Sequence record: MT446416.1
From: Escherichia virus TH47
Length of the DNA: 64,000 nt
Direction: 5' to 3' (one strand)
Below the pieces are notes generated by a model that ran no database searches, had not been told where the DNA came from, and was given only the letters and a program-made list of their open reading frames with translations. The position numbers and the translations under genes were made by a program. This document shows, piece after piece, positions 24,351 through 62,959 of this stretch; the first letter of the stretch is position 1, and each line of letters starts with the position of its first letter.

Positions 24351-25760
24351 TTAGCTACGTTGACGCTTTTTGTCAGCTTCATATTCGTAGTGTACAGTTT
24401 CGCCAAATGGTGCTTGTTTGTTAGGATTACTGTGGATAACAAACAGTGTCTTACAGTAATCAGGATCACCCCATGACTGCCACGGCTCACCATCGGTAAA
24501 CATAATAAGCTGTTTAGGCTTATAGTTGTCATGCTTCATATGAACCCATACTGCTTCAAAGTCAGTACCACCACCACCTTTCACTGGATATTCGAGAATC
24601 TTACTCTCTTCACCAGTTTTGTAATCTTTAACAGTATAAACTTCAGTATCGAACGTCATGATACGGATTTTAAATTGTTTAAACTGCTTAGTGATACCCA
24701 GTACTTCACTGATGAAATCACGGAGCATATCTTCAGAGATAGAACCGGATGCATCTAGTGCAATTGCAATATCAATATCATCATCTGGTTTCATGCCTGG
24801 GAAGATTGGATTCCCGTAGAATGAACCAGTACTACCAAAACCAGCACCCCATGAACGACGATTAGGACTTTGATAAGTTGCGTCAGACTTCAACCAGCTA
24901 CGCAGTGTGCGGTGAAGTTTGGAACGCCAGTCAATCTTAGGTTCTTTGAAGTTGTTAATCATACGTGCGATTTCAGCAGGAGTACCACCTGCACGAGCAG
25001 CATTCATCATTGCTGTTTTGAAATCATCCATATAATCACGTTTTTGTTTATCACTTGAACCACCTTCTTGACCTTCTTGTGGAACGTCATGCTGGTCGAT
25101 TGTTGTACCTTTGCCTTTACCATCTTTGATATCACCAAAAGTACCGCGTGATTTACCTTCACCCTCACCACTACCAGCCTGTGGATTTCCTTCACCTTCC
25201 CCGTCTTGATCCTGTTTATCTTCTTCTTCGAGAATGTTATAAATCTCTTCAGCAGTCATACCATCGTACTTTTTATCGTACAGCCATTGGCTTTGGATTT
25301 TACCAATTTTATCACGAACAAGAATCTGGTTAATTGCATAGTCAGCAGCACGGTTATAACGCTGCGGGTCACGCATACCACGACGCAAGAAGTGGTCATA
25401 TGCACAGTGAAGAATCTCATGACAGATAACTGCAATCAGGTTTTCATCAGTCAAACCTTCTGTCATTTCTTTAAGTTGTTCTTCAGTTACTTCAGGATGT
25501 TTCTCACGAATTGCTTCTTCGTATGCGGACTTTTTGGATTGGTCCTGAATACCCATGATGAATTCTACGTTGTAGAATAAATGCTTACCATCTACTGCCA
25601 AAGTACGACACCATGTATTGTTTGCAACTGGACGCAGACGAGAAGCCAGTACACCAAAGAATGGGAATGTTAGCATTAAAGATGTGCGAGCTAAGATCAG
25701 ACGATCTTGACATTCTTTCTGGAGAGCCGGAGTAACATCACTGAAACGTTTATCTGACAT
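24351..25760 (-). CDS. vWA-domain protein with N-terminal HExxH metallopeptidase-like domain (CobT-like)
   Basis: HEILHCAYDH (HExxH) plus MIDAS DASGS in DIDIAIALDASGSISEDM; GAGGAAA RBS; directly downstream of the AAA5 ATPase. Confidence 0.75.
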   Translation of the reverse strand: MSDKRFSDVTPALQKECQDRLILARTSLMLTFPFFGVLASRLRPVANNTWCRTLAVDGKHLFYNVEFIMGIQDQSKKSAYEEAIREKHPEVTEEQLKEMTEGLTDENLIAVICHEILHCAYDHFLRRGMRDPQRYNRAADYAINQILVRDKIGKIQSQWLYDKKYDGMTAEEIYNILEEEDKQDQDGEGEGNPQAGSGEGEGKSRGTFGDIKDGKGKGTTIDQHDVPQEGQEGGSSDKQKRDYMDDFKTAMMNAARAGGTPAEIARMINNFKEPKIDWRSKLHRTLRSWLKSDATYQSPNRRSWGAGFGSTGSFYGNPIFPGMKPDDDIDIAIALDASGSISEDMLRDFISEVLGITKQFKQFKIRIMTFDTEVYTVKDYKTGEESKILEYPVKGGGGTDFEAVWVHMKHDNYKPKQLIMFTDGEPWQSWGDPDYCKTLFVIHSNPNKQAPFGETVHYEYEADKKRQRS

Positions 25761-39706: not shown

Positions 39707-41701
39707 TTAATATTTTTTTGTGTATTTTATATTACCAGAGTTGTAAATCTTATAATATCCCAATACATCACAGCAAATTTGTCTCTCAGTTAAGTTAATA
39801 TCATGACCTTTCTTGACCAATTTATGTTTTTGACATTTCTGACGTGAAATCCTCTCATGTGTTTGTGGGTCATAATAAAAATATCCGGGTTCTGTATAGC
39901 TATCAAACTCAAAGCCAAGAACTGTATAAAGATCACCACTACTCCAATCCATATCCGCATATGTCAATAATGATTGTGGATTATATACTGTTTCAAAATA
40001 TTTTAGTAATTTTGATGCACCACCAACAACTGTACCGGATGAACAGTATCTGATTAATTCATATTCATAGTTTTTATCAAACCTTGATTTACCAAAGGTC
40101 ATAACTGCAACTAAATCACTTCCATAGTAAAGTCCAATGTGAATACTTGCTTGTGCAACACCTTGAATATGGTGTGATTTAGTAAACATATTACTTACTT
40201 GTTTGTCTATATTTCTAACAGTACATTTTCTAGCATAAATTCTATTTGACACTAGAAGTTTATTCTTTAAACGTTCCTTGATAATTTTATTTGTTAATGG
40301 GTTATCCCATTCATCTTCATAAATGTGAATAAGATTCACCCCATGTTTTAAACAATCCAATACCTTATCTTGATGTTTAGTGGAATTTACATTTTCATCA
40401 TTATGCCAATACACACCATTAAATTCAATAGCTAGATTACGGTCTGGGATATACACATCCAACTCTTTAGGTTTCAGCACTGAACGGTCGTTTTCTATAA
40501 TTTGCATATTTTGTATTAATGATTTTATATAATCAACTAAATCTTTCTCTTTCAATGAATGACCATTATTTTTCTGACACTTACATTTCACTTTATGATT
40601 TTTATACTTACTATAAAACAATTCATCACAATACTCACACCAAAATGGGTATTCGTCTGTATTAACTTTCATCATTAGGTCGGTGTTTTCAAATAATGGA
40701 ATATAGTTTTTATCAATATTTGCAACAATGATATTATATCTTTCGTCTAGACGAGCAAGTGACATTTTCTCTTTATACTCATCAGTCTGTGAGTAGTGTT
40801 CTGAACCATATCTATTTTTTGTGGTTTCTTTCATTTTTTCAATGATAGAATTATTTTGGGCTGGGTGTTTTACACCATATCGCTCCACATTGGTATTATG
40901 AACTTTTTCCTGAACACTCATATTGCTCATTGGGTAAAATGAATTATACTTCAACGTGTTGGTGTTTTTTATTTTATCTTGGACAATTTTATTTGATAGT
41001 GGATTGCCACCATATCGTTCAAGATTTGTTTTATTGATTTTTTCACGAATCGTCGGTGATGATAAAGAATACTCAGCACCGTATCTTAATATATTTGTGT
41101 TTTTGGCTTTCTCTTTTACTTCATTTCTTTTGCTTTGGAATTCAACACCATACTTTTTTAAATTTGTTGCTTTTACTTTATTGAATATTTCAGAGTTTTG
41201 GTTTGGATATTCACAACCATATCGCTCTATATTAGTTTGTTTGATTTTATCTTTAGTTTCTGATGTTTGTAAATTAGATGAGACACCATAACGCTCAATG
41301 TTAGTTTTTTCTTTCTTTTGTTTTACTTCTTGTATTTGGGACACATTAGATACACCATACATATCCATTAATGTTGATTTTGTTTTATTAGTTCGATTTT
41401 TATAATACATTTCATGGCATACATTACATGTATTTTTCTTATTAATCACATAGTCATCACAAAATTTATAAAATCCTTTTTGGAAATTTTTGTATCTTGC
41501 TTTTTTTCCGCAATATGCAGTTGGAACGGTTGTTATATCATTCATGAACATATATAGAATTTTATATATTTCGAAATCAGTTTTTGGTTCTATTCCAAAA
41601 GTAGAAAGGAGAACCCTCACACGAGAGTCCCCTTTGTATAAATGTACCCATGAATTAATATGTTTTGACAACAAAAGTTTTTTTAATTCTTCATTGTTCA
41701 T
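39707..41701 (-). CDS. repeat-rich endonuclease-like protein with Vsr/DUF559-type PD-(D/E)xK domain (homing-endonuclease candidate)
   Basis: nine tandem ~29-aa repeats with core TN(I/L)ERYG; Cys cluster CEYCDELF...CKC; motif LDVYIPDRNLAIEFNGVYWH. Confidence 0.55.
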   Translation of the reverse strand: MNNEELKKLLLSKHINSWVHLYKGDSRVRVLLSTFGIEPKTDFEIYKILYMFMNDITTVPTAYCGKKARYKNFQKGFYKFCDDYVINKKNTCNVCHEMYYKNRTNKTKSTLMDMYGVSNVSQIQEVKQKKEKTNIERYGVSSNLQTSETKDKIKQTNIERYGCEYPNQNSEIFNKVKATNLKKYGVEFQSKRNEVKEKAKNTNILRYGAEYSLSSPTIREKINKTNLERYGGNPLSNKIVQDKIKNTNTLKYNSFYPMSNMSVQEKVHNTNVERYGVKHPAQNNSIIEKMKETTKNRYGSEHYSQTDEYKEKMSLARLDERYNIIVANIDKNYIPLFENTDLMMKVNTDEYPFWCEYCDELFYSKYKNHKVKCKCQKNNGHSLKEKDLVDYIKSLIQNMQIIENDRSVLKPKELDVYIPDRNLAIEFNGVYWHNDENVNSTKHQDKVLDCLKHGVNLIHIYEDEWDNPLTNKIIKERLKNKLLVSNRIYARKCTVRNIDKQVSNMFTKSHHIQGVAQASIHIGLYYGSDLVAVMTFGKSRFDKNYEYELIRYCSSGTVVGGASKLLKYFETVYNPQSLLTYADMDWSSGDLYTVLGFEFDSYTEPGYFYYDPQTHERISRQKCQKHKLVKKGHDINLTERQICCDVLGYYKIYNSGNIKYTKKY
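40624..41389 (-). repeat. nine tandem ~87-nt coding repeats (ERYG repeats)
   Basis: periodic K.K.TN.ERYG....Q motif in the translated product. Confidence 0.6.
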
Positions 41702-41727
41702 ATAGTTCTCTTTTTAAATGTTTAAAT

Positions 41728-42519
41728 TTATCCGATAATCATTCCAAGTGGTTCCCCACCATCTTTATATCGCTTCAACTGTTCTTTTAGTTGTTCTTGT
41801 AATTGGATACCTTCATTTCTTAATGTATCACCATCCATTGAAAATGTCCCTTGCGGTCCAGGCAATGAAGCAAACTTAGCACGGTTACGACCAAGCATAA
41901 TCATTGCTTCAGACAATGCCCAATCACGAAGCCACGGGTAACTTTGCTGACGTTGGAATAACAATGGTTCTGGGATGTTATGATATACATGTAATAATAC
42001 TTCTTCTGTACCACGAATATCACGATCAATAATAAGTTTCTTAGTCATTTGGTTGAATTGGAATATAATTTCACGTCCAAACATACGACCAACCAATTCT
42101 TGAAATTGAAAGCTGAAATCATATGTTGTTAGGTCATATCCACCTGCATTCCTAGCAGACGTCAATAGATATGTATTTGTGAATGCCAATGAGAATGGGT
42201 CTACGCTGTTACCTGACCCAGAACTTAAATAACCATTACCATAACGATAAATCTTTTTAACAATTTCTACTTCTGTTGGTAGCATATATACCGATTGTGA
42301 ATCATAAAATTTCATATTTAAAAATGCTTCTTCTTTAGAAGCAGAACTCCACGCTCTGTAATTTGATACAGCATTATCAATTGCAATTTCTAATTGACCA
42401 TCAGTAATTTCTACCTCAACTGCACCTGCTCCCAACATTTGAGTGATAACATCTTTCAGTTTTTCACGATGATCAAAATTAGGAGCATCTGGGTTTCCAC
42501 CCATATAATTGTAAGACAT
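41728..42519 (-). CDS. hypothetical protein, possible virion protein
   Basis: 263-aa ORF, GAGGTG RBS. Confidence 0.5.
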   Translation of the reverse strand: MSYNYMGGNPDAPNFDHREKLKDVITQMLGAGAVEVEITDGQLEIAIDNAVSNYRAWSSASKEEAFLNMKFYDSQSVYMLPTEVEIVKKIYRYGNGYLSSGSGNSVDPFSLAFTNTYLLTSARNAGGYDLTTYDFSFQFQELVGRMFGREIIFQFNQMTKKLIIDRDIRGTEEVLLHVYHNIPEPLLFQRQQSYPWLRDWALSEAMIMLGRNRAKFASLPGPQGTFSMDGDTLRNEGIQLQEQLKEQLKRYKDGGEPLGMIIG

Positions 42520-42572
42520 AAAAAAAGCACCTCATTAATGTTTATATATACATTATTTAGAGGTGCTAATAC

Positions 42573-42746
42573 TTATTTTGAATTATACAAGCAGTACAGG
42601 TATACCAACGGAGTAAAATGTTCTGAATCTATAGCATATATTAACTGTGTAACATATATTCCGTATAAATCTCGACTTTTATCTCGGTACATTAACAATG
42701 AATTATTAAAGTATGGGTCAACCCAGTACTTTATATTATTTAACAT
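42573..42746 (-). CDS. small hypothetical protein
   Basis: short ORF filling a 265-nt gap; start uncertain. Confidence 0.25.
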   Translation of the reverse strand: MLNNIKYWVDPYFNNSLLMYRDKSRDLYGIYVTQLIYAIDSEHFTPLVYLYCLYNSK

Positions 42747-42783
42747 CAATGTATTGTTTCTGTATCCTGATAATTTTAAGCAT

Positions 42784-43161
42784 TTAGCCAACTTTTTCAC
42801 AATTACTTAGTAAGTGTGTGATTACATCGGCAGTGAATGGTCCTAGAACTAAAACTTCTTCTCCATTACCGAAGATACTCAATGGTACAGATTGTTGTCC
42901 TGCTAGATATTCGATTTGTTCTAATTCGAAAATGTCATCAGCAGCATAAACAACCTGTTCCATTTCATTATCTTTAATCCATGACTGCCAATGTTCTTTA
43001 AACTGCTTCGCTTCGTATTCCAGCACATAGTTAGGTGATTCTGGATTGTACTGATGTAGCATTGTCATACCAGCCATGACCAGTTCTTTTGGTGATGGAG
43101 TAGAATCTTTCAGTACTACGATAGCTTGGATAGTTTTAACTTTAACGTTTTGAGCAGCCAT
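42784..43161 (-). CDS. hypothetical protein
   Basis: 125-aa ORF, AGAGGT RBS. Confidence 0.5.
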   Translation of the reverse strand: MAAQNVKVKTIQAIVVLKDSTPSPKELVMAGMTMLHQYNPESPNYVLEYEAKQFKEHWQSWIKDNEMEQVVYAADDIFELEQIEYLAGQQSVPLSIFGNGEEVLVLGPFTADVITHLLSNCEKVG

Positions 43162-44808: not shown

Positions 44809-45208
44809 TTCTTTTCCCTTTATTTCGTTGAAACATCGTAACAGCCTTTATTATACTGTTACACATTCGTTCAGTCAAATACTTTTGACAATCTAGTACA
44901 TCAATGTACATGAACTTATCCAATTCTGGGTGACTTCTACCATATCGGTTTGTGTAAGTACTCTTACACTCTAACTCTTCTGGTATAGGCTTATCTTTGG
45001 CTGTATAGAAAAATAAAACTAAACGTTTCCCCTTTCTATACGATACATCACCAAGAAACAGAAGATCATCTTCATCGATTTCATATCCTGTCTCTTCGTA
45101 GCATTCGCGAACAGCAGCCTCTTTAAATGTTTCTGTACCTTCAGTTTTACCTTTAGGTAAGTCCCAGTGATTCTGTCCGTGTTGTATGCCCGATAAGTAT
45201 CTGACCAT
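44798..45208 (-). CDS. Nudix hydrolase (second copy)
   Basis: Nudix box GKTEGTETFKEAAVRECYEETG; short N-terminus, start uncertain (GTG/ATG at 45211/45208); extended -10 TGGTATAAT just upstream. Confidence 0.65.
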   Translation of the reverse strand: MVRYLSGIQHGQNHWDLPKGKTEGTETFKEAAVRECYEETGYEIDEDDLLFLGDVSYRKGKRLVLFFYTAKDKPIPEELECKSTYTNRYGRSHPELDKFMYIDVLDCQKYLTERMCNSIIKAVTMFQRNKGKRNES

Positions 45209-45317
45209 CACGATAAAATATTATACCACAACTATAACGCATAATCTTATCTCTTTATCATCAAGTGATGTTCAGATACTAGTAATTATATCAGAAGATG
45301 TTAACTTGTCCCAGCTT

Positions 45318-46433
45318 TTAGAACATTTGCTTGATTGCTTCAATACGCAATTCAGCAACAAAATCACGAATCTCTGATGTTTGGAGTTCACCATCTTTCA
45401 CTAACTGCTGAATATCAGGTAATTCAACATCAGTATAACGATCATAAACTTTAATAATCAAATCTTCAAGATCAGAATCAATTTCTTTGTTCAAAATGAA
45501 GTTTTCCAGTACTTTGTAAAGGAAATCTTCGCCACCATTGTTTTTGATATTCATCTCCAGTAAGATTTGTCCCATTTCAACGGGGGTCTTCTTACGGAAG
45601 GTTTTAATATCTTCACGGAAACGCTTGATGTAATTACTAAACTTCACGTACTTAACTGGAACCTTAATAGAACCATTAAGTACTGAATCATTATTTACTT
45701 CTTCATTTTCAAGAAGTACTGTCCATAAGAAATATGGTTTATATTCTTCTGTACAATTTGCAGCGATAGCATCAATTAATTCCAGACGTTTCTTGGTAAC
45801 TGGAACTGTAGTAAATGCCTTTTCGTAATAACCAAATTGTACCAGAGTTTTGATAAACTTGGAAGGGTTTTCTTCAGAAAGTGCTTTTTCGAATTCAACA
45901 AAAACACGATCTGGAACTAGATGGTCTAGTTCACCAGTACTAACCATATCTTTACACATTGTCATAGTATCATCATGGATTGTAAAGTCTGAGTAACGTG
46001 TAGCGAAACGTGCCAAACGTAGTACACGCAATGGATCTTCTTTAAAGTGTTCTGATACATGACGAAGTACTTTGTTCTTGATATCAGCTTTCCCGCCATA
46101 AGGGTCGATGTGAATCTGGAGTACTGGATCATACGCTATGCTATTTACCGTAATATCCCTTCTGTATAGATCTTGCTCTAGTGTCACGCCTTTAGTATTC
46201 ACTTCGAAGCCACCGTAGCCAGTACCAGTTTTACGTTCGGTACGTGCCAATGCGTGCTCATTACCCTCTGGACTTAGATACACTGGAAAATCCTTACCTA
46301 CTTGCTTATAGCCAATACTTTGTAAGTACTTAATATCGGATTCGGTAGCACCGACAATGACATAATCTTTGTCTTTTGCACGAATACCCATTAAACGGTC
46401 CCTCACATAGCCGCCCACCAAATACTTTTTCAT
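45318..46433 (-). CDS. tRNA nucleotidyltransferase (CCA-adding enzyme) / poly(A) polymerase head-domain protein
   Basis: N-terminal GGYVRDRLMG, DKDY and RRDITVNSIAYD motifs; GAGGAAGG RBS. Confidence 0.8.
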   Translation of the reverse strand: MKKYLVGGYVRDRLMGIRAKDKDYVIVGATESDIKYLQSIGYKQVGKDFPVYLSPEGNEHALARTERKTGTGYGGFEVNTKGVTLEQDLYRRDITVNSIAYDPVLQIHIDPYGGKADIKNKVLRHVSEHFKEDPLRVLRLARFATRYSDFTIHDDTMTMCKDMVSTGELDHLVPDRVFVEFEKALSEENPSKFIKTLVQFGYYEKAFTTVPVTKKRLELIDAIAANCTEEYKPYFLWTVLLENEEVNNDSVLNGSIKVPVKYVKFSNYIKRFREDIKTFRKKTPVEMGQILLEMNIKNNGGEDFLYKVLENFILNKEIDSDLEDLIIKVYDRYTDVELPDIQQLVKDGELQTSEIRDFVAELRIEAIKQMF

Positions 46434-47497
46434 AATATACCTTCCTCTGAAAGATGTTTTTTTAATACAGTTAAGTGGTCTTCATAATATGTTACACGTA
46501 TTAATTTAATAAAATTCTTTTCACAATATTGTGTCTTTATAGTATCGTTATCCTTGATGTTTTTCAATTTATCTTCTCCACCCCAATGAGGTGATTTCTC
46601 AAAATGTTGTTTACCATCATACTCAATACAAATATCATAATCAACCAAATAAAAATCAAATCTTAATAACATTTTATTTTTACAGTCACTAAATGTTTGT
46701 TCTTTATTAAATTTTATACCATTTTCAATTAAAAAACGTGTTATTTCTCTACTAGCTCTGGATTCAGTATGTTCAGATGAGCATATTGGGCAACCTTGTT
46801 TTTTATTTTTTGCTATATGAAAATTTGGAATGATATAAAAAGAATTATTATGTTTTTTACAAATTATTTCAACATGAGTGCTACTATTAATGTAGATGAC
46901 TTTTGAATAGTCATATACATTACCATGAATTTCTTTTGCTCGTTCAACAAATTCAGCGGTGGTGAATGCGTGTGCTAATCTGGTTTTTTCAAATCGACAA
47001 ATAGAGCAACCCTGACCACTTTGTATATTACTAATTTCCATTTCATCAACGTGACCACATTTTAAGCATTTATAAGTTAATTTGGTTCTTTTATCTTTAA
47101 TTATTGGTTGTTCTAAAAGTAATTCACATTCACCAGTCATTAGACTTTTTGAAGTCTTATAAAGATAATATCTATAATTTGCATTGTCATATTTCCCAAT
47201 GATATATTTCATACCTTTCGTTTTTATATCATTTATATTTCTTTTTGTATATATAATACCATCTTTTTCAACAACAGTTCTTGTAAAACTAGATTTCCAT
47301 TCATCACTTGATGTTATAGCAAATCCTAAAATATTATATCCTTTTTCTATTATTTCTTCAAAATGTTCTTTAGGTGTTTTTGATGTTTTAATTAATTTTG
47401 GTGATAAATCTTCGGGACGCATCCATTCGAAACGCATACCTAATTCTTCATGGAAATATACCTTCTCGTTATTTTCATTAAAATAAAATTTATACAT
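46430..47497 (-). CDS. Vsr/DUF559-type endonuclease-like protein with zinc ribbon (homing-endonuclease candidate)
   Basis: CLKCGH...CSIC and CPIC Cys pairs; C-terminal LLRFDFYLVDYDICIEYDGKQHFE resembles DUF559 endonuclease motif. Confidence 0.5.
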   Translation of the reverse strand: MYKFYFNENNEKVYFHEELGMRFEWMRPEDLSPKLIKTSKTPKEHFEEIIEKGYNILGFAITSSDEWKSSFTRTVVEKDGIIYTKRNINDIKTKGMKYIIGKYDNANYRYYLYKTSKSLMTGECELLLEQPIIKDKRTKLTYKCLKCGHVDEMEISNIQSGQGCSICRFEKTRLAHAFTTAEFVERAKEIHGNVYDYSKVIYINSSTHVEIICKKHNNSFYIIPNFHIAKNKKQGCPICSSEHTESRASREITRFLIENGIKFNKEQTFSDCKNKMLLRFDFYLVDYDICIEYDGKQHFEKSPHWGGEDKLKNIKDNDTIKTQYCEKNFIKLIRVTYYEDHLTVLKKHLSEEGIL

Positions 47498-47508
47498 TTT
47501 CTAATCTT

Positions 47509-47640
47509 ATTCCCCCATCAACCAATCAAGCAAATGTTCCCAGAATCCTTTAGGCTTATATTCTGGGTATTCATATTCATCAGTTCCTTGTTCGGAAACA
47601 CCCCAATCTTCTTCTAATACTGTAACCACAATGCCTCCAA
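47509..47640 (-). CDS. possible small protein (GTG start)
   Basis: 43-codon ORF with GGAGG RBS filling the gap between genes; not in ORF track. Confidence 0.2.
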
Positions 47641-48063
47641 TTAAATCAATCTGTCACGTAGACGGTCGTAATATTTTGCATGTATATCTAGTATACACTG
47701 AAATGATGGATAGTCAATACTAAATGTATCATCAATGAACATGTACTGATCAAGTGTTTCAGGACCATTATCAACAACTGGCAATGAACCTTCTTTTTTT
47801 GACAGTGTGTTCCACATCAACTCACATGTAGTATCGAAAATTGCGTATGTTAATTCTATCTTACTTTTTCTAAGTGTAATTAATAATTCATCATTCTCTT
47901 CTAACGAGTTTCGTATTTTTATACGTACAGTACCCTGAAATTTATTAGTGGTTAGTACTCTATATTGATTATACGAAATTATACCTCGTATTTCAGTACT
48001 GATTTCTTGTTCAGAAAAGAACCTTACTGTACTGTGGAAATTTGGTATTTTACGAATGTCCAT
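47641..48063 (-). CDS. hypothetical protein, paralogue A
   Basis: shares C-terminal motif YMFIDDTFSIDY with adjacent gene. Confidence 0.5.
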   Translation of the reverse strand: MDIRKIPNFHSTVRFFSEQEISTEIRGIISYNQYRVLTTNKFQGTVRIKIRNSLEENDELLITLRKSKIELTYAIFDTTCELMWNTLSKKEGSLPVVDNGPETLDQYMFIDDTFSIDYPSFQCILDIHAKYYDRLRDRLI

Positions 48064-48457
48064 TCAAATTCCTTTCGTATATATGGTATACGTTCATTAT
48101 ACTATTATATAGATCAAAGTCAAATCCAAATGTGTCATCAATGAACTGATATTGTAGATATTCTTCATATGAAGCATCAATTGGTAATGAGCCATTACGC
48201 ACATCATCTGATTTAAAATCGTCAATGTATCTTAATGTTATGTCTTCATCAACCGTGATATCTATCATCAACGTATCGTCACTGTACCATAGGTTGTGTA
48301 TACGGATGTAAAGTCTCTTAGCACGATTAAACCAAGATACATTGGTATAGCGATGAAGTTTGTCTAAATTGAAGAAAAAACCTGACTCGTTCTTACTTAT
48401 GTTTTTAATATGTTCTGCAATCGGTTCAATTATATGAACAATGTTGAATGTTTTCAT
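48050..48457 (-). CDS. hypothetical protein, paralogue B
   Basis: C-terminal motif YQFIDDTFGFDF; start at ATG coupled to upstream stop (TTATGA). Confidence 0.5.
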   Translation of the reverse strand: MKTFNIVHIIEPIAEHIKNISKNESGFFFNLDKLHRYTNVSWFNRAKRLYIRIHNLWYSDDTLMIDITVDEDITLRYIDDFKSDDVRNGSLPIDASYEEYLQYQFIDDTFGFDFDLYNSIMNVYHIYERNLNGHS

Positions 48458-48639
48458 AAACAAATCTCATAACGGTTTGTGTTTGGATTGTAGCAATAGG
48501 TATCATTAATTTTAACACCAGGTTTAAGTGTGATGGTTGTACCTACTTCAGTACTGGGTTCCGCATCACAGTAAATCATCACACCAACTCCTGCGAGTAA
48601 GGCTATGATACATACAATTACACATATGGTATATTCCAT
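48454..48639 (-). CDS. small single-pass membrane protein
   Basis: 61 aa with hydrophobic helix CVIVCIIALLAGVGVMIY; GAGGAA RBS. Confidence 0.5.
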   Translation of the reverse strand: MEYTICVIVCIIALLAGVGVMIYCDAEPSTEVGTTITLKPGVKINDTYCYNPNTNRYEICL

Positions 48640-48652
48640 TTCAATTCCTCGG

Positions 48653-49045
48653 TTATAAAAAGTAATTGTACATTTTATTGTACAATATAAAAAGGTCTTT
48701 CACATTATCATAAGTAATATTAGATACATCATGAATTAATGATAACTGAAAAAATGATGCTTCGTCTATATCTACTGGGATTATAACATCATCGTCTTCG
48801 TCCATTTTATTGGTGTAGTATTTTATGTGATCAGCATTCATCTCAATAGAGAACGCAAGGTTGGATTTTGTATAATCTTCAATTAATCCGATAAATTTAG
48901 ATTTTTCATTAATAAAAAATCCAATCCCAAAACAACGGTTATCTGAATATGGATAGTACCATCTATTAAAAACTAGGCTTTCAGGTAAATCATCATCATG
49001 TGTTGATACGAGAGATTTTACTACATCTACCCAAACATAATTCAT
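48653..49045 (-). CDS. hypothetical protein
   Basis: 130-aa ORF with GGAG RBS. Confidence 0.5.
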   Translation of the reverse strand: MNYVWVDVVKSLVSTHDDDLPESLVFNRWYYPYSDNRCFGIGFFINEKSKFIGLIEDYTKSNLAFSIEMNADHIKYYTNKMDEDDDVIIPVDIDEASFFQLSLIHDVSNITYDNVKDLFILYNKMYNYFL

Positions 49046-49098: not shown

Positions 49099-49431
49099 TT
49101 ACTCTTCGTCTTCAGTCAAGTCTTCTTGAACTGGATGTTCTGGGTGGTTACGGCGATGCAATTTGATGCTTTTGTCTTTACCTAAGACAGTTTCCATTTT
49201 TTCAAATGAATCACCAATTGCTTTGTATAAATCTGCATCATCGGCTGTAACACTCTTACCGCCTGATGTTAAAGTTACGGAATATTGGTTCTTATGCTCT
49301 TTCTTCACATGAACACCAATATGCAGTACTGAAGAATCACTAAACTTCGTTAGTGCATTTGCTTCAGCATGAATTGCGTCATTGATTGCTGGAGTAATAT
49401 CAACATTACCTTGGATAACTAAATCTAGCAT
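49099..49431 (-). CDS. hpf: ribosome hibernation promoting factor / RaiA-like protein
   Basis: aligns along its length with HPF/YfiA (IQGNVDIT.A, VHVKKE, TLTSGG, DLYKAIGD, KLHRRNH); AAGGTAGG RBS. Confidence 0.8.
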   Translation of the reverse strand: MLDLVIQGNVDITPAINDAIHAEANALTKFSDSSVLHIGVHVKKEHKNQYSVTLTSGGKSVTADDADLYKAIGDSFEKMETVLGKDKSIKLHRRNHPEHPVQEDLTEDEE

Positions 49432-49455
49432 AATTTACCTACCTTTTTTTTAGTT

Positions 49456-50382
49456 TTAAAGATTACTAACTAACAATTCTGCACGGTTTCCTACTTGACG
49501 ATACCATAGAGAATTCTTAATTTCTTTTTTGAACTTGTTATCATTTTGATTATCAACGCTTTTCCATAATTTATTGAAAGTATTTAACTTATCAACTCCT
49601 AATGTAAATGCCATCTCAAATAAAATTCGTTGTTGTTCAGCCGTAAGGTTTGTTGCATTTCTTTTCTTCAATAATAAAACTAAATCATTATTAGTTCGTT
49701 CCATGTCAGACAATAAAAGTTTATGTGCTTGTGACTTCGTAATACCATTACGATACTTACTTGCATCTGATTCTTTCTTTCCAAGATAATGTCCGTACCC
49801 AATAGTGAAGTTACCTTTTATATCACGATACGGATAAAATTTAGAATTTCGATATGGAACTCCAACTTTCCCACCAAGTAAACGTCGTTTGTTCTTGGAC
49901 TGAAATTCAATAGAACCTTCAGCTTCTTTGATGTGATTGACAATTTCTGGATCTTTATAATCAAACAGTACAGTCACATCTGGTAACAATACGTGCTTCA
50001 AATCCTCTTTTGTTGGGATAAAGATACCCTGAGAAGTATGAAGAGTTGCATTTAAGTTGATGTTCTTCAACAAAATGACATAATCTTCAATCTGTACATT
50101 TTTAGGTTTAAATTTCTGTGCAATAGAATAATAACTATCACCAGGTTGAACCGTATAATGTTTCTCGCTGCTTGGAACTGCTTTTGGTACTGATACCTTT
50201 GGTAGTTCCTGCTTTTGAATTTGAGTAAACTGTGGTTTTAAATTATGCACCTGACTTTCGTCTAATGATGGTACATGATCACTTTGAGAAAAACCATAAA
50301 ATCCAATAGCAGCGAATAGGGCTGATGAAACTAATACGCCTACGGCAATTTTAGTTTTCAGTGCTTTTTTCGCTTTTTTCAA
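49456..50382 (-). CDS. signal-anchored LysM + T4-lysozyme-like (GH24-type) protein, endolysin candidate
   Basis: TTG start after AAAGGAGG RBS; N-terminal basic stretch then helix IAVGVLVSSALFAAIGFYGF; LysM-like YTVQPGDSYYSIAQKF; C-terminal FTIGYGH...LWYRQVGNRAELL resembles T4 lysozyme. Confidence 0.65.
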   Translation of the reverse strand: MKKAKKALKTKIAVGVLVSSALFAAIGFYGFSQSDHVPSLDESQVHNLKPQFTQIQKQELPKVSVPKAVPSSEKHYTVQPGDSYYSIAQKFKPKNVQIEDYVILLKNINLNATLHTSQGIFIPTKEDLKHVLLPDVTVLFDYKDPEIVNHIKEAEGSIEFQSKNKRRLLGGKVGVPYRNSKFYPYRDIKGNFTIGYGHYLGKKESDASKYRNGITKSQAHKLLLSDMERTNNDLVLLLKKRNATNLTAEQQRILFEMAFTLGVDKLNTFNKLWKSVDNQNDNKFKKEIKNSLWYRQVGNRAELLVSNL

Positions 50383-50498
50383 AACGCCTCCTTTGTTGGT
50401 TGTTAACAATGAGCAATCACAAAGAGGGCAAAGAGGCCATTTGCAAAAGCCTCATTGGACTTTCTACAGTACTCAGTTGTTCTTTGGAACATTTAAGT

Positions 50499-56322: not shown

Positions 56323-56964
56323 TCATATTTTATTTATAGTAATGGTGATATTAAAACTTTCTATATCATTCTTTAATATATCAACTCGTTTTCGTAAACC
56401 ATCTATAACTTCTGGTATTACATCATTTTTATACATCTCTATTAACTCTTCTATATATTTTTTCTTTTCTATCTGCCACGCACGATGTGCATCTTCTGGA
56501 GTTTCATAAACACCAATGTATGTTGTTTTATTATATATTGTTATTTTAGCACAATAAGGTTTGGTATATTCACTCACCATGTCTTTTGGACGTTTTCTGT
56601 ATATCACTCCCATTCCATATGGTGATGCATTTGCAGCACTGTCTAGTATACAGTAATTCAATTCTTTGGGAACAAATGCACATGTTTCAGGAGAATAGAT
56701 TTTCTTACTCCCACCAATAATATCTTTATCTAATTGATATCCTTCTTTATAATGTGATTTGTACCAAATTTTAAATTTTGAATAATACTTCCACTCATCA
56801 CATACAACAGTTCCAATATAAGAACCCTTAGCCTTATCGGAATAGCATCGGTCTAACATACGTTGCCATGCACAATATATTGCTCGATCTGGATTTGTTA
56901 TACTAGCATCACCTTTTATATCACAGATGCCATGACCATAAAACTTCTTCATTAATTTATCCAT
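56323..56964 (-). CDS. AP2-like DNA-binding domain protein (homing-endonuclease-associated family)
   Basis: C-terminal YIGVYETPEDAHRAWQ resembles AP2 domain; N-terminal W..M..RC...Y....C..W pattern. Confidence 0.4.
   Translation of the reverse strand: MDKLMKKFYGHGICDIKGDASITNPDRAIYCAWQRMLDRCYSDKAKGSYIGTVVCDEWKYYSKFKIWYKSHYKEGYQLDKDIIGGSKKIYSPETCAFVPKELNYCILDSAANASPYGMGVIYRKRPKDMVSEYTKPYCAKITIYNKTTYIGVYETPEDAHRAWQIEKKKYIEELIEMYKNDVIPEVIDGLRKRVDILKNDIESFNITITINKI
56331..56338 (-). promoter_or_regulatory. T4-late-promoter-like TATAAATA box
   Basis: exact TATAAATA on the minus strand about 38 nt upstream of the Dps-like start. Confidence 0.3.
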
Positions 56965-60682: not shown

Positions 60683-62959
60683 TTATTTTTTACTGTACCA
60701 TTGCATTTCACGGATATCTAATAGTACCTTCGTAGCCAACTTTATGTTTGGTCGCTTCGGTAGATGGGTTTTATGATACGCCACATTTCGGATGTAGTCA
60801 ACCTTTTCGTTGAAATAATCCATAACTTCTTGATACAACCACTTCCCGTTACGAATGTCCATCAACATAGCAGCATCTGGTCGGTGAACTTGGATGATGC
60901 CAGTTTCAAGTGCTTCCTCGGCTGTATTCAGCAGCCTGATTGTATGCATAGCATGTTTGCAATTTCCATGTAATGCGGTTTTTCCATTTCTACGAGTAAT
61001 GAGTGTTCCGTTGGGAACAGAAAAACACACAGTTCTGTAATTAGTAACTGGAATTTTTTCAAGATTTTGTTTCATGTTCATTTTTTCGGTTTTGGGTTTC
61101 ATATTGATATGAATTTGATATATATCAACACTACCAAAATTGGTTTCGTTTGTGTATGGTCCCCATTTTGATGTTTCATAACCACATAGCAATGCTAGTT
61201 TTTGAACATCATCAGCTAATAATGAATTGGTAGTATAATATACAAATGTATCATTGTCATTAACTAAATTTCGTTTTGTTCCATCACCTTGTAACAAACC
61301 TTTCAGAAGGAAATCCATTTTACGTTTTGTTAAATCAAATACCCAATTTGGAATTCGTTTATTATATGAACCATGTCCACAATCATTATATAATGCTTCA
61401 GCTACTTCACTTGGGAATGTATATCTTGATTCGTCATTAGCTTGATAATCTTTCTTTTCTATAATGTATTCATTAAACATTAATTGACCAGATTTTTTGT
61501 ATTTTGATAAAGCACAACGCATACCTTGACTAGTTTTTGACTGGGAAATATATAAAGATTTTACTTTACCATCCCTGAAATTTATGCACCCATCTGAAAT
61601 AAACCATCCCATGAGTTGAAGATAAACTTTGATATCCATGTAGTCAATTGGACTTTTTTTATCTTTGTGTTCTTTAGTTATTGGGGATATTGTATTCAAA
61701 ATTTTATATGTTTCTTTTAATTGTGCTGCTTCTACAAATTTCCAATCAGACATATCTTTTTGTTGATTTCGTGCATAATCCTTAACATACATTCGGTGGT
61801 TAGCAGTCACTAAAGTATCTTGGTGATGACCAGTGAAATGGTATAGATTGCCATTATATAAATTATCAAAACGTTCAGTGTATTTCTGATATTCAACTTT
61901 GTGATTTTTGTCAAAAGTAGCTAATAGATCGTTTTCAGTAATATCATCAAATAACTTCCAACCATCTTTAGTTAAGAATTCAGTATCAAAACTATAACAG
62001 TCATAACCGTGGTGTGATTCAAGAATAGCACGTTTGGCATTACGGTTCTGCTTCCATTTGTGATAACTCTTACGGTTCTCACTATTTTCTTTGTATTCCT
62101 TTTCATTGAATTTTACAATGAGTTCAGGACGAACTTTTAATTCTTCCGAAGTACGTTCTTTATTGAAGTAACGTAGTGAACCATCAGCATTCACTGTACT
62201 TTCATTCGGGTTGATAATTACCCCAAAGATGTTTTCACCGTAATGGATTAGTTCATATCCAGAATTGTAATTCAATAAATTGAAATCACGATCTAATACT
62301 TTGTCAGTACTATAATTATGTACTAAACGTACAAAATGATATTGTTTCAATGCTTGTGTTGAAACTAATTGTAATGAAGTATCACGCATGTATTTTTCGA
62401 AATCAATTTTTGTAGCATTGAATGGGTGAAGATTGGATTTATTCAAACGGTCAACCAAATACTGCGGGAATGTATCATACATCCATGAAAGTACTTCGTC
62501 AACTGGATGTTCTTCTAAAATTTCATTTAGTTTACGTTCAGCAATTCGTTCCTTATCGAGCCATCCGTGGTGATTCGACATACGCTTAACCTGATTGTAT
62601 GCATAACCACTGTATGAATGAGCAATCTTTGAACTCAATAATTGCTGATTGAATGAGCGTAGATAGTCATAGATTTCAGTACTTTCTACGATGTGTTCCG
62701 GTTTAACCCATAGTGATTCAAGAATGTTTGGGTTAGCTTCTGTATAAAGACTTAAGTACTGATTGACTTCATAAAATTTAGTATCTTCTTCAGAAGGATC
62801 TGAAACTTCCTTAACATTAAAAAAAGGAGTTAGGATAAATTCTTTGTTTGCAAGGAAGATACCACGATAATCGGTATCACTTTCTGGTGTGCTTGTGCCA
62901 TACGCCTGTGAACCCGCTAAGTGTTTAACAATTGTTTGTTCTAGAAAATTGTTTTTCAT
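60683..62959 (-). CDS. Pol-beta-superfamily nucleotidyltransferase-fold protein interrupted by a probable intein
   Basis: N-terminal HLAGSQAYGTSTPESDTDYRGIF (GS...DxD NTase motif); in-frame 346-aa insert with Hint and LAGLIDADG blocks. Confidence 0.55.
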   Translation of the reverse strand: MKNNFLEQTIVKHLAGSQAYGTSTPESDTDYRGIFLANKEFILTPFFNVKEVSDPSEEDTKFYEVNQYLSLYTEANPNILESLWVKPEHIVESTEIYDYLRSFNQQLLSSKIAHSYSGYAYNQVKRMSNHHGWLDKERIAERKLNEILEEHPVDEVLSWMYDTFPQYLVDRLNKSNLHPFNATKIDFEKYMRDTSLQLVSTQALKQYHFVRLVHNYSTDKVLDRDFNLLNYNSGYELIHYGENIFGVIINPNESTVNADGSLRYFNKERTSEELKVRPELIVKFNEKEYKENSENRKSYHKWKQNRNAKRAILESHHGYDCYSFDTEFLTKDGWKLFDDITENDLLATFDKNHKVEYQKYTERFDNLYNGNLYHFTGHHQDTLVTANHRMYVKDYARNQQKDMSDWKFVEAAQLKETYKILNTISPITKEHKDKKSPIDYMDIKVYLQLMGWFISDGCINFRDGKVKSLYISQSKTSQGMRCALSKYKKSGQLMFNEYIIEKKDYQANDESRYTFPSEVAEALYNDCGHGSYNKRIPNWVFDLTKRKMDFLLKGLLQGDGTKRNLVNDNDTFVYYTTNSLLADDVQKLALLCGYETSKWGPYTNETNFGSVDIYQIHINMKPKTEKMNMKQNLEKIPVTNYRTVCFSVPNGTLITRRNGKTALHGNCKHAMHTIRLLNTAEEALETGIIQVHRPDAAMLMDIRNGKWLYQEVMDYFNEKVDYIRNVAYHKTHLPKRPNIKLATKVLLDIREMQWYSKK
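60962..61999 (-). mobile_element. probable intein with LAGLIDADG homing-endonuclease domain
   Basis: block A CYSFDTEFLTKDGWKLFDDI, block B LVTANHRMYV, two LAGLIDADG-like motifs LMGWFISDG and LLKGLLQGDG, C-terminal NGKTALHGN followed by Cys. Confidence 0.5.

Follow-up and report, generated by a model that had tools for sequence, protein, structure and literature searches.

The locus described here raises the question of why a gene with nuclease-like features lies directly against the gene for a CCA-adding tRNA nucleotidyltransferase in a jumbo phage, and how it came to be there. The locus is part of a window of 64,000 nucleotides (nt) of Escherichia virus TH47 (sequence record MT446416.1), an Asteriusvirus-type jumbo coliphage of the PBECO4/121Q group, and consists of an open reading frame (ORF) at 46430-47497 on the minus strand, followed on the same strand by the CCA-adding enzyme gene (the CCA gene) at 45318-46433 (Pfam PolyA_pol, 1.7e-18, and PolyA_pol_RNAbd; PHROG 2244, 6e-115). 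The reading that we favor, with a probability of roughly 0.75, is that the ORF is a free-standing homing endonuclease gene acting by intronless homing on the CCA gene. A sequence-only reading of this DNA had proposed an ORF at these positions coupled to the CCA gene, and both proposals were confirmed: the ORF is intact, starts with ATG and encodes 355 amino acids (aa), and its stop codon and the ATG of the CCA gene share the ATGA at 46430-46433. The ORF matched PHROG 559 (E 1.8e-51, covering aa 5-341) and PHROG 9084, 'homing endonuclease' (E 2.4e-25), and a search of a large protein collection returned 1298 relatives, for none of which a structure has been solved or an activity described. The product is 98.9% identical in aa sequence to A4_535, the ratio of nonsynonymous to synonymous substitution rates (dN/dS) of the gene is 0.21-0.25 when compared to the diverged alleles in L062 and L009, and all five alleles compared are intact. 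The PHROG 559 match, the 1298 homologs and the dN/dS together establish that the ORF is a real gene and not a chance ORF.

Comparison of related genomes revealed a clear presence/absence polymorphism at this site. Among the 36 related phage records that match the region, only phage A4 carries the gene here, and in the remaining 35 the match splits into two pieces, leaving out exactly the inserted stretch. The insertion, as placed by BLAST breakpoints and junction alignments, spans 46434-47508 and consists of 1075 nt replacing 3 nt of the gene-less phages, with ends that are ambiguous by 1-3 nt. It lies between the stop codon of a 40-aa ORF (47507-47629, minus strand; PHROG 34272, 2.8e-28; placed by junction alignment) and the ATG of the CCA gene, and both neighbors are intact; in gene-less phages, the 40-aa ORF stops 1 nt before the CCA ATG. 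The 40-aa ORF obtains the rest of its TAA stop codon from the insertion, and the 3' end of the nuclease gene contains a Shine-Dalgarno-like GAGGAAGG (46440-46447, minus strand), a putative ribosome-binding site read from the sequence, which lies 6 nt upstream of the CCA ATG and takes the place of GGGGGAA in the gene-less phages. Because the insertion is exactly intergenic and supplies both an upstream stop codon and a new putative ribosome-binding site for the CCA gene, it appears to do little harm. The nuclease gene is thus positioned between intact genes and is free-standing, not in an intron or intein. A promoter scan of 45200-48200 gave 23 promoter-like sites versus a shuffled expectation of 16.9 +/- 4.6, which is no excess, and a terminator scan of the same interval found none.

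The sequence surrounding the insertion proved to be mosaic. The backbone of the window is 98-100% identical to WPEC3 and ~80% identical to A4, whereas positions 46134-47508, made up of the nuclease gene together with CCA nt 1-300, are ~99.5% identical to A4. When mapped site by site, the informative sites up to 46119 all equal WPEC3 and those from 46134 to 47508 nearly all equal A4; from 47513 on the window departs from A4, and informative sites equal WPEC3 again from 47659. The 5' part of the CCA gene, nt 1-300 (46134-46433, minus strand), carries an A4-type haplotype in a WPEC3-type backbone (98-100% identity to A4 versus 74-94% to WPEC3), and the whole of 46134-47508 reads as a co-conversion tract. 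An independent assembly from a public read set reproduced the window sequence over 5.3 kb, and therefore the mosaic is not an assembly artifact of a single record. Beside the tract, a segment of ~140 nt in the region of the 40-aa ORF (47513-47653) had a best database phage match of 92.5% in an otherwise ~99% WPEC3 backbone, and can be read as BF17/PBECO4-type and WPEC3-type alleles in mosaic, plus a few singletons. Mutations left by error-prone repair were considered for this segment and rejected, as most of its 'unique' bases match BF17- or PBECO4-type alleles, which makes it another mosaic.

The tract has a replicate in a different backbone. Exact-sequence look-ups identified three further metagenomic backbones with the gene at the same site (one in L062/L063, one in L066 and one in short contigs); a search of IMG/VR with back-translated peptides found no further gene-bearing loci. 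A 19-nt junction pattern, GGTATATTATGAAAAAGTA, yielded 3 viral and 43 metagenome matches; tblastn detected neither the nuclease nor the CCA enzyme in any of them, and they were dismissed as chance matches. In the four gene-bearing backbones, nt 421-1116 of the CCA gene are mutually 71-79% identical; over these positions the window matches BF17 and WPEC3 (98.9%) and L066 matches ph0011 (98.4%). L066 equals ph0011 upstream up to the junction and is 100% identical to ph0011 downstream from CCA nt 301, with the shared haplotype between, and it returns to the ph0011-type backbone inside a predicted double-strand-break interval at the distal end of the tract (46119-46137), which in the window is bounded by the last donor-type marker at 46134 and the first backbone-type marker at 46119. 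The tracts of L066 and the window end in the same 15-nt interval. Since the ph0011-like backbone of L066 and the WPEC3-like backbone of the window both end the tract after CCA nt 300, these data point to two independent events with the same distal end. The replicate bears on an alternative in which the gene is a passive passenger, an inactive or immobile nuclease relic inside an A4-like patch that was exchanged by ordinary homologous recombination of co-infecting phages: two unrelated backbones have patches that start at the gene and end within one short interval, and identity between the nuclease genes is 97-99.6% even though their backbones otherwise differ so widely, both of which argue against a passenger.

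To measure linkage between the gene and the sequence of its neighbor, the whole CCA gene was aligned from 4 gene-bearing and 14 gene-less genomes, giving 430 variable columns. Ten of the 430 have no allele common to the gene-bearing and gene-less groups, and all ten lie at CCA nt 258-297 (46137-46176, minus strand); when 10 marks were placed at random on the variable columns, so tight a cluster was obtained in 0 of 1,000,000 permutations. The patch comprises codons for E-Q-D-L-Y-R-R-D-I-T-V-N-S-I, and its central codons read AGA AGG GAT ATT ACG GTA in gene-bearing genomes versus CGY CGT GAY CTN ACA ATN in gene-less ones, such that both arginine codons of RRD are AGR wherever the gene is present and CGY in all genomes that lack it. 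The RRD sequence is what we take to be conserved motif B of class II nucleotidyltransferases. In the phage collection, the patch haplotype occurs in A4 only, and the next best match is 77% identical over 61 nt. Furthermore, in L062 the sequence between the nuclease gene and the patch differs (84% identical), yet all 10 diagnostic bases are kept. This pattern is what selection against self-cutting would produce, and the persistence of the link where the intervening sequence has been exchanged also speaks against a passenger. These comparisons indicate that 46137-46176 is likely the candidate target and immunity site, and that the CCA gene is probably the putative target of the nuclease and not merely its translationally coupled neighbor. 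The codons of the RRD motif are also unusually variable among the gene-less phages themselves, with at least 5 haplotypes that all encode RRDLTIN[SA]I[AS], the protein motif being conserved; this variability may be target-site escape under nuclease pressure.

The protein was modeled with AlphaFold on an alignment of 53 homologs, and the model is confident from residue 120 on. The N-terminal region (aa 1-120; 47138-47497, minus strand as for all parts of the gene) has predicted local distance difference test (pLDDT) values of 31-63, is kept in P0002, a 60%-identical homolog from metagenomic phage contigs, and lies within the PHROG 559 match. Zinc module 1 (aa 121-170; 46988-47137), a treble clef or zinc ribbon with C144, C147, C164 and C167, forms beta-hairpins in the model, and Pfam DUF4379 (treble-clef zinc finger) matches aa 133-168 at 31.8 bits against a cutoff of 24.5 (E 1.7e-07). 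Zinc module 2 (aa 178-240; 46778-46966), a DUF723-type repeat with pLDDT >90, contains FVERAKEIHGNVYDYS, followed by C213 and H216 and then by C236 and C239. A predicted Vsr-like PD-(D/E)xK nuclease domain of the EDxHD type occupies the C terminus (aa 244-352; 46442-46768), with D281, E292, D294, H298, D318 and K321. The zinc-ribbon cysteine pairs named in the sequence-only reading are accordingly present (C144/C147 with C164/C167, and C213/H216 with C236/C239), as is the C-terminal motif that it singled out, LLRFDFYLVDYDICIEYDGKQHFE at residues 277-300. Across the 53 homologs, a variable number of ~60-aa tandem modules with the pattern FIxKAKxIHGxKYDYSxVxY...C..H......H....GC..C is followed by the C-terminal nuclease domain, and the modules match DUF4379 in all 53 members and DUF723 in 45. 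The type represented by zinc module 2 is tandemly repeated in homologs, with nearly invariant columns; in the window protein, a single zinc ribbon and a single DUF723-type module follow the 120-aa N-terminal region. Of the ligands in zinc module 2, C213, C236 and C239 never vary among the 53 homologs and H216 is conserved in at least 90%; in the C-terminal domain D281, E292, D294, G295, H298, D318, K321 and R334 are nearly invariant, the columns of D281, E292, D294, H298 and D318 being at least 90% conserved.

A Foldseek search with the predicted model returned 1vsr with a probability of 1.00, and in both order and spacing the conserved residues agree with the active site of Vsr/I-Bth0305I as described in PMC3239194. 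The EDxHD composite motif was defined as Vsr E25, D51, the H64 position, H69 and D97. An hhalign comparison of the family profile with E. coli Vsr gave an E of 0.36, which is not significant and leaves the register alone as informative; in that register D281 falls on D51, E292 on F62 and D294 on H64, as expected. The nuclease domain is thus predicted to have a Vsr-like PD-(D/E)xK fold, an assignment based on the predicted fold and the order of the motif residues. The label HNH endonuclease, attached to PHROG 559 and to several GenBank records, was rejected as a misannotation, given that no Pfam HNH match was found and that the predicted fold is PD-(D/E)xK. The resemblance to Vsr raises the alternative that the protein is a Vsr-type mismatch-repair nickase or a general phage DNA-repair enzyme, in line with the name 'very-short-patch-repair endonuclease' that JGI uses for several homologs. 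We regard this as highly improbable: the sequence match to Vsr is not significant, the nuclease is fused to arrays of zinc modules that putatively read sequence, the gene occurs sporadically and inside a conversion tract, and no dcm-like partner adjoins it. The database labels would thereby be corrected, the protein being neither an HNH nor a repair enzyme.

Homing on the CCA gene would proceed as follows. The two CapR/DUF723/DUF4379-type zinc modules and the N-terminal region would bind a specific DNA sequence, and the C-terminal Vsr-like (EDxHD-type) PD-(D/E)xK domain would cut the bound sequence. During co-infection with a gene-less relative, the enzyme would act on its CCA gene roughly 260-315 nt into the coding sequence, where the RRD motif is encoded, with recognition over nt 258-297 and a break near nt 300-315. 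The compared tracts show the outcome of repair from the gene-bearing genome, in which CCA nt 1-300 and then the nuclease gene are copied into the recipient. Gene-bearing genomes would be protected by their heavily recoded RRD-motif codons. Free-standing endonucleases are known to cleave codons that specify critical residues, hundreds of base pairs (bp) away from the endonuclease gene, with co-conversion of the interval (PMC2988022), and modules of the DUF4379/DUF723 type are DNA-binding repeats of phage homing endonucleases (PMC10448857).

Several points weigh against this reading. At the level of the protein, Pfam Vsr (PF03852) and DUF559 (PF04480) gave no match at E up to 0.1, such that the proposed 'Vsr/DUF559-like' identity holds for Vsr by predicted fold but not for either Pfam model; among the relatives, weak Pfam matches were to DUF559 in 3 of 53 and to DUF2726 in 20 of 53. 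Searches of solved-structure sequences with the single protein and with the 53-sequence profile returned nothing even at E 10, and an NCBIfam search gave nothing useful. Vsr E25, the first residue of EDxHD, aligns with S249 in both the window protein and P0002 where the wider family has a glutamate, and the nearby E245 and E251 are out of register. The window and A4 nuclease genes differ at 4 of 1068 nt, and all four substitutions are non-synonymous, which fits relaxed constraint on the youngest copies. At the level of the locus, mosaic patches and indels without a nuclease gene lie nearby, at 48201-49000 and 49401-49800, so recombination alone can make patches; only four backbones carry the gene, and within the tract they may have a common history; and the clustering of diagnostic columns could partly reflect a locally high substitution rate. 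The predicted fold, the conserved residues, the insertion polymorphism, the conversion tracts and the linkage of the recoded patch to the gene are established here from sequence and model; cleavage, the target and immunity are what we infer from these patterns. A passive passenger is favored by the nuclease-free patches, the serine at the first motif position and the amino acid changes relative to A4, but the tract end shared by two backbones, the linkage of the patch and selection on an ORF that is intact in five alleles disfavor it, and we consider it unlikely.

Selection on the gene is also apparent from a more distant locus. P0002 lies directly upstream of a diverged CCA gene with the same ATGA overlap, and its comparison with the window nuclease gene gave a dN/dS of 0.21 at a dS of 1.5. 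This adjacency, together with the dN/dS and the five intact alleles, argues that the nuclease has been under purifying selection while remaining beside the CCA gene. In the metagenomic phage bearing P0002 (L009 330-420, L010 890-1000), a hairpin resembling a terminator and an AT-rich spacer precede the nuclease gene, which may have its own promoter there, while the window gene lies inside a co-directional array. Other Asteriusvirus and RaK2-like phages carry more distant relatives (31-47% identity) at different loci, and one in PBECO4 looks like a truncated copy; the wider family is therefore common and turning over in these phages. Purifying selection would also be expected if the nuclease served the phage, by excluding the markers of competitors or degrading foreign DNA, and were kept for that benefit and not for homing, and homing endonucleases do cause marker exclusion and can be co-opted (PMC2988022, PMC10448857, PMC13096335). 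Nonetheless, 35 of the 36 close relatives manage without the gene, and the structure of the tract is what self-propagation predicts. A role of this kind overlaps with homing instead of replacing it, and as the reason for the presence of the gene it is very unlikely.

Homing on the CCA gene would place the window protein among known systems as follows. A free-standing Vsr-like homing endonuclease with CapR/DUF723-type modules belongs to a class that is known (PMC3239194, PMC10448857), to which the prediction of a specific CCA target is added here. I-Bth0305I (PDB 3R3P) is a member of the 'EDxHD' Vsr-like homing endonuclease family (PMC3239194); it resides inside a group I intron in recA and has NUMOD/HTH-type N-terminal motifs, whereas the window gene is free-standing and its product has DUF4379/DUF723 modules, shows no detectable sequence similarity to the 3R3P chain and has a serine in place of the first motif glutamate. 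Hef of phage U5 and F-LimIII are free-standing Vsr-like enzymes of large lytic phages that are encoded between genes and cut a neighboring conserved gene (PMC2988022, PMC3239194, PMC3296691), but the 355-aa protein lacks the DUF7487 repeats and the extra C-terminal domain of that group. T4 SegF, SegG and MobE resemble the window gene in being intergenic and in cutting hundreds of bp away in a neighbor, as proposed here; their interval is obligatorily co-converted, and their own copy is protected by sequence differences (PMC2988022). They differ in having GIY-YIG or HNH domains and not PD-(D/E)xK, and their activity was established by experiment, whereas that of the window protein is predicted. 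The T5orf172 endonucleases likewise have arrays of CapR/DUF723/DUF4379 zinc fingers and nuclease genes at the boundaries of exchanged segments (PMC10448857), but with a GIY-YIG-like nuclease, while the window protein joins such modules to a Vsr-like domain. E. coli Vsr (PDB 1VSR, 1CW0), in contrast, is a single-domain T:G mismatch repair nickase that is not mobile.

If correct, the reading provides a clean natural record of homing in jumbo phages: sequence alone reveals the gene, the flank converted with it, a second such event and a candidate target of 40 nt. It also yields a prediction of the cut site that can be tested directly, for a large family of biochemically uncharacterized proteins. 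As a putative target, the gene for the phage CCA-adding enzyme would join the conserved genes on which homing endonucleases act. A bolder and rather doubtful extension is that the protein represents an uncharacterized branch in which interchangeable zinc-finger 'beads' are strung on a Vsr-like cutter, with the unusually heavy synonymous recoding of the RRD codons, in gene-bearing and gene-less phages alike, recording an ongoing arms race between nuclease and target in an active-site motif. Were this true, recognition might be modular enough to re-engineer, and the locus would be a natural target-escape system.

The sequence-only reading had further assigned to the 355-aa protein the same endonuclease signature as that of a gene at 39707 and had taken the two as evidence of one actively spreading family. 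The other gene (39707-41701, minus strand) encodes a 664-aa protein with a match to PHROG 3339 (4.7e-163). Aligned along 93% of its length, this protein shares 30% identity with F-LimIII, a Hef-like enzyme of LIMEstone1 (PMC3296691), and the gene belongs to the Hef group as a Hef-like free-standing homing endonuclease gene. The shared signature extends to the catalytic core (~60 aa, 26% identity) and no further: BLASTP aligned 61 residues at 26% identity with an E of 0.009 and nothing else, hhalign gave 82% probability over 57 columns, and tblastn within the window produced no cross-match between the two genes. Both genes do lie inside patches of foreign sequence. The patch around the 664-aa gene (38800-42900) is UE-S1-like, with 93-100% identity to UE-S1 versus 74-95% to WPEC3 inside and 98-100% to WPEC3 outside; its ~4.1 kb include ~900 bp on the side of the dNMP kinase and ~1200 bp on the side of the neck/tail gene, and it reads as a second, larger and older conversion patch. 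At this locus the 664-aa gene was found only in UE-S1 (96.5%) and ph0011 (93.6%), and is absent from WPEC3 and A4. A single spreading family was not borne out. The DNA-binding parts differ (DUF4379/DUF723 zinc modules in the 355-aa protein versus DUF7487 repeats and an extra C-terminal domain in the 664-aa protein), as do the best PHROGs (559/9084 versus 3339, Hef-like) and the nearest relatives (A4 versus UE-S1 and ph0011). As only the ~60-aa core is common to the two, these data indicate independent invasions from one superfamily and not copies of one gene.

In this phage group, mobile nuclease elements are where much of the local mosaicism is found. Six patches of the window diverge from WPEC3: two contain full-length genes for homing endonucleases, one contains a gene of this kind that is likely truncated, and one a probable intein. 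The probable intein lies in a gene for a 758-aa RlaP-like nucleotidyltransferase (60683-62959, minus strand), which carries an insertion of ~345 aa (about 60963-61997); the WPEC3 gene encodes 412 aa and is without the insertion. With a Cys at its first position and motifs of the LAGLIDADG type (Pfam LAGLIDADG_3, 3e-05), the insertion is probably an intein that contains a homing endonuclease. A 213-aa ORF at 56323-56964 (minus strand) is absent from WPEC3 and matches PHROG 953, 'HNH endonuclease' (5.8e-65), in the C-terminal half only (profile positions 194-402 of 420), with no Pfam match; it is likely a truncated or decaying homing endonuclease gene. A 469-aa ORF at 24351-25760 (minus strand), annotated in WPEC3 as 'HNH endonuclease', was also considered as a mobile nuclease and rejected, as its matches to DUF2201_N (4.4e-36), DUF2201 and VWA mark it as metallopeptidase/VWA-like. 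Two of the differences from WPEC3 contain no nuclease gene: 48567-49040 includes a 130-aa ORF (48653-49045; PHROG 36582) that A4 has and WPEC3 lacks, and 49401-49800 has 62-74% identity to WPEC3 in the N-terminal part of a lysozyme-like ORF (49456-50409).

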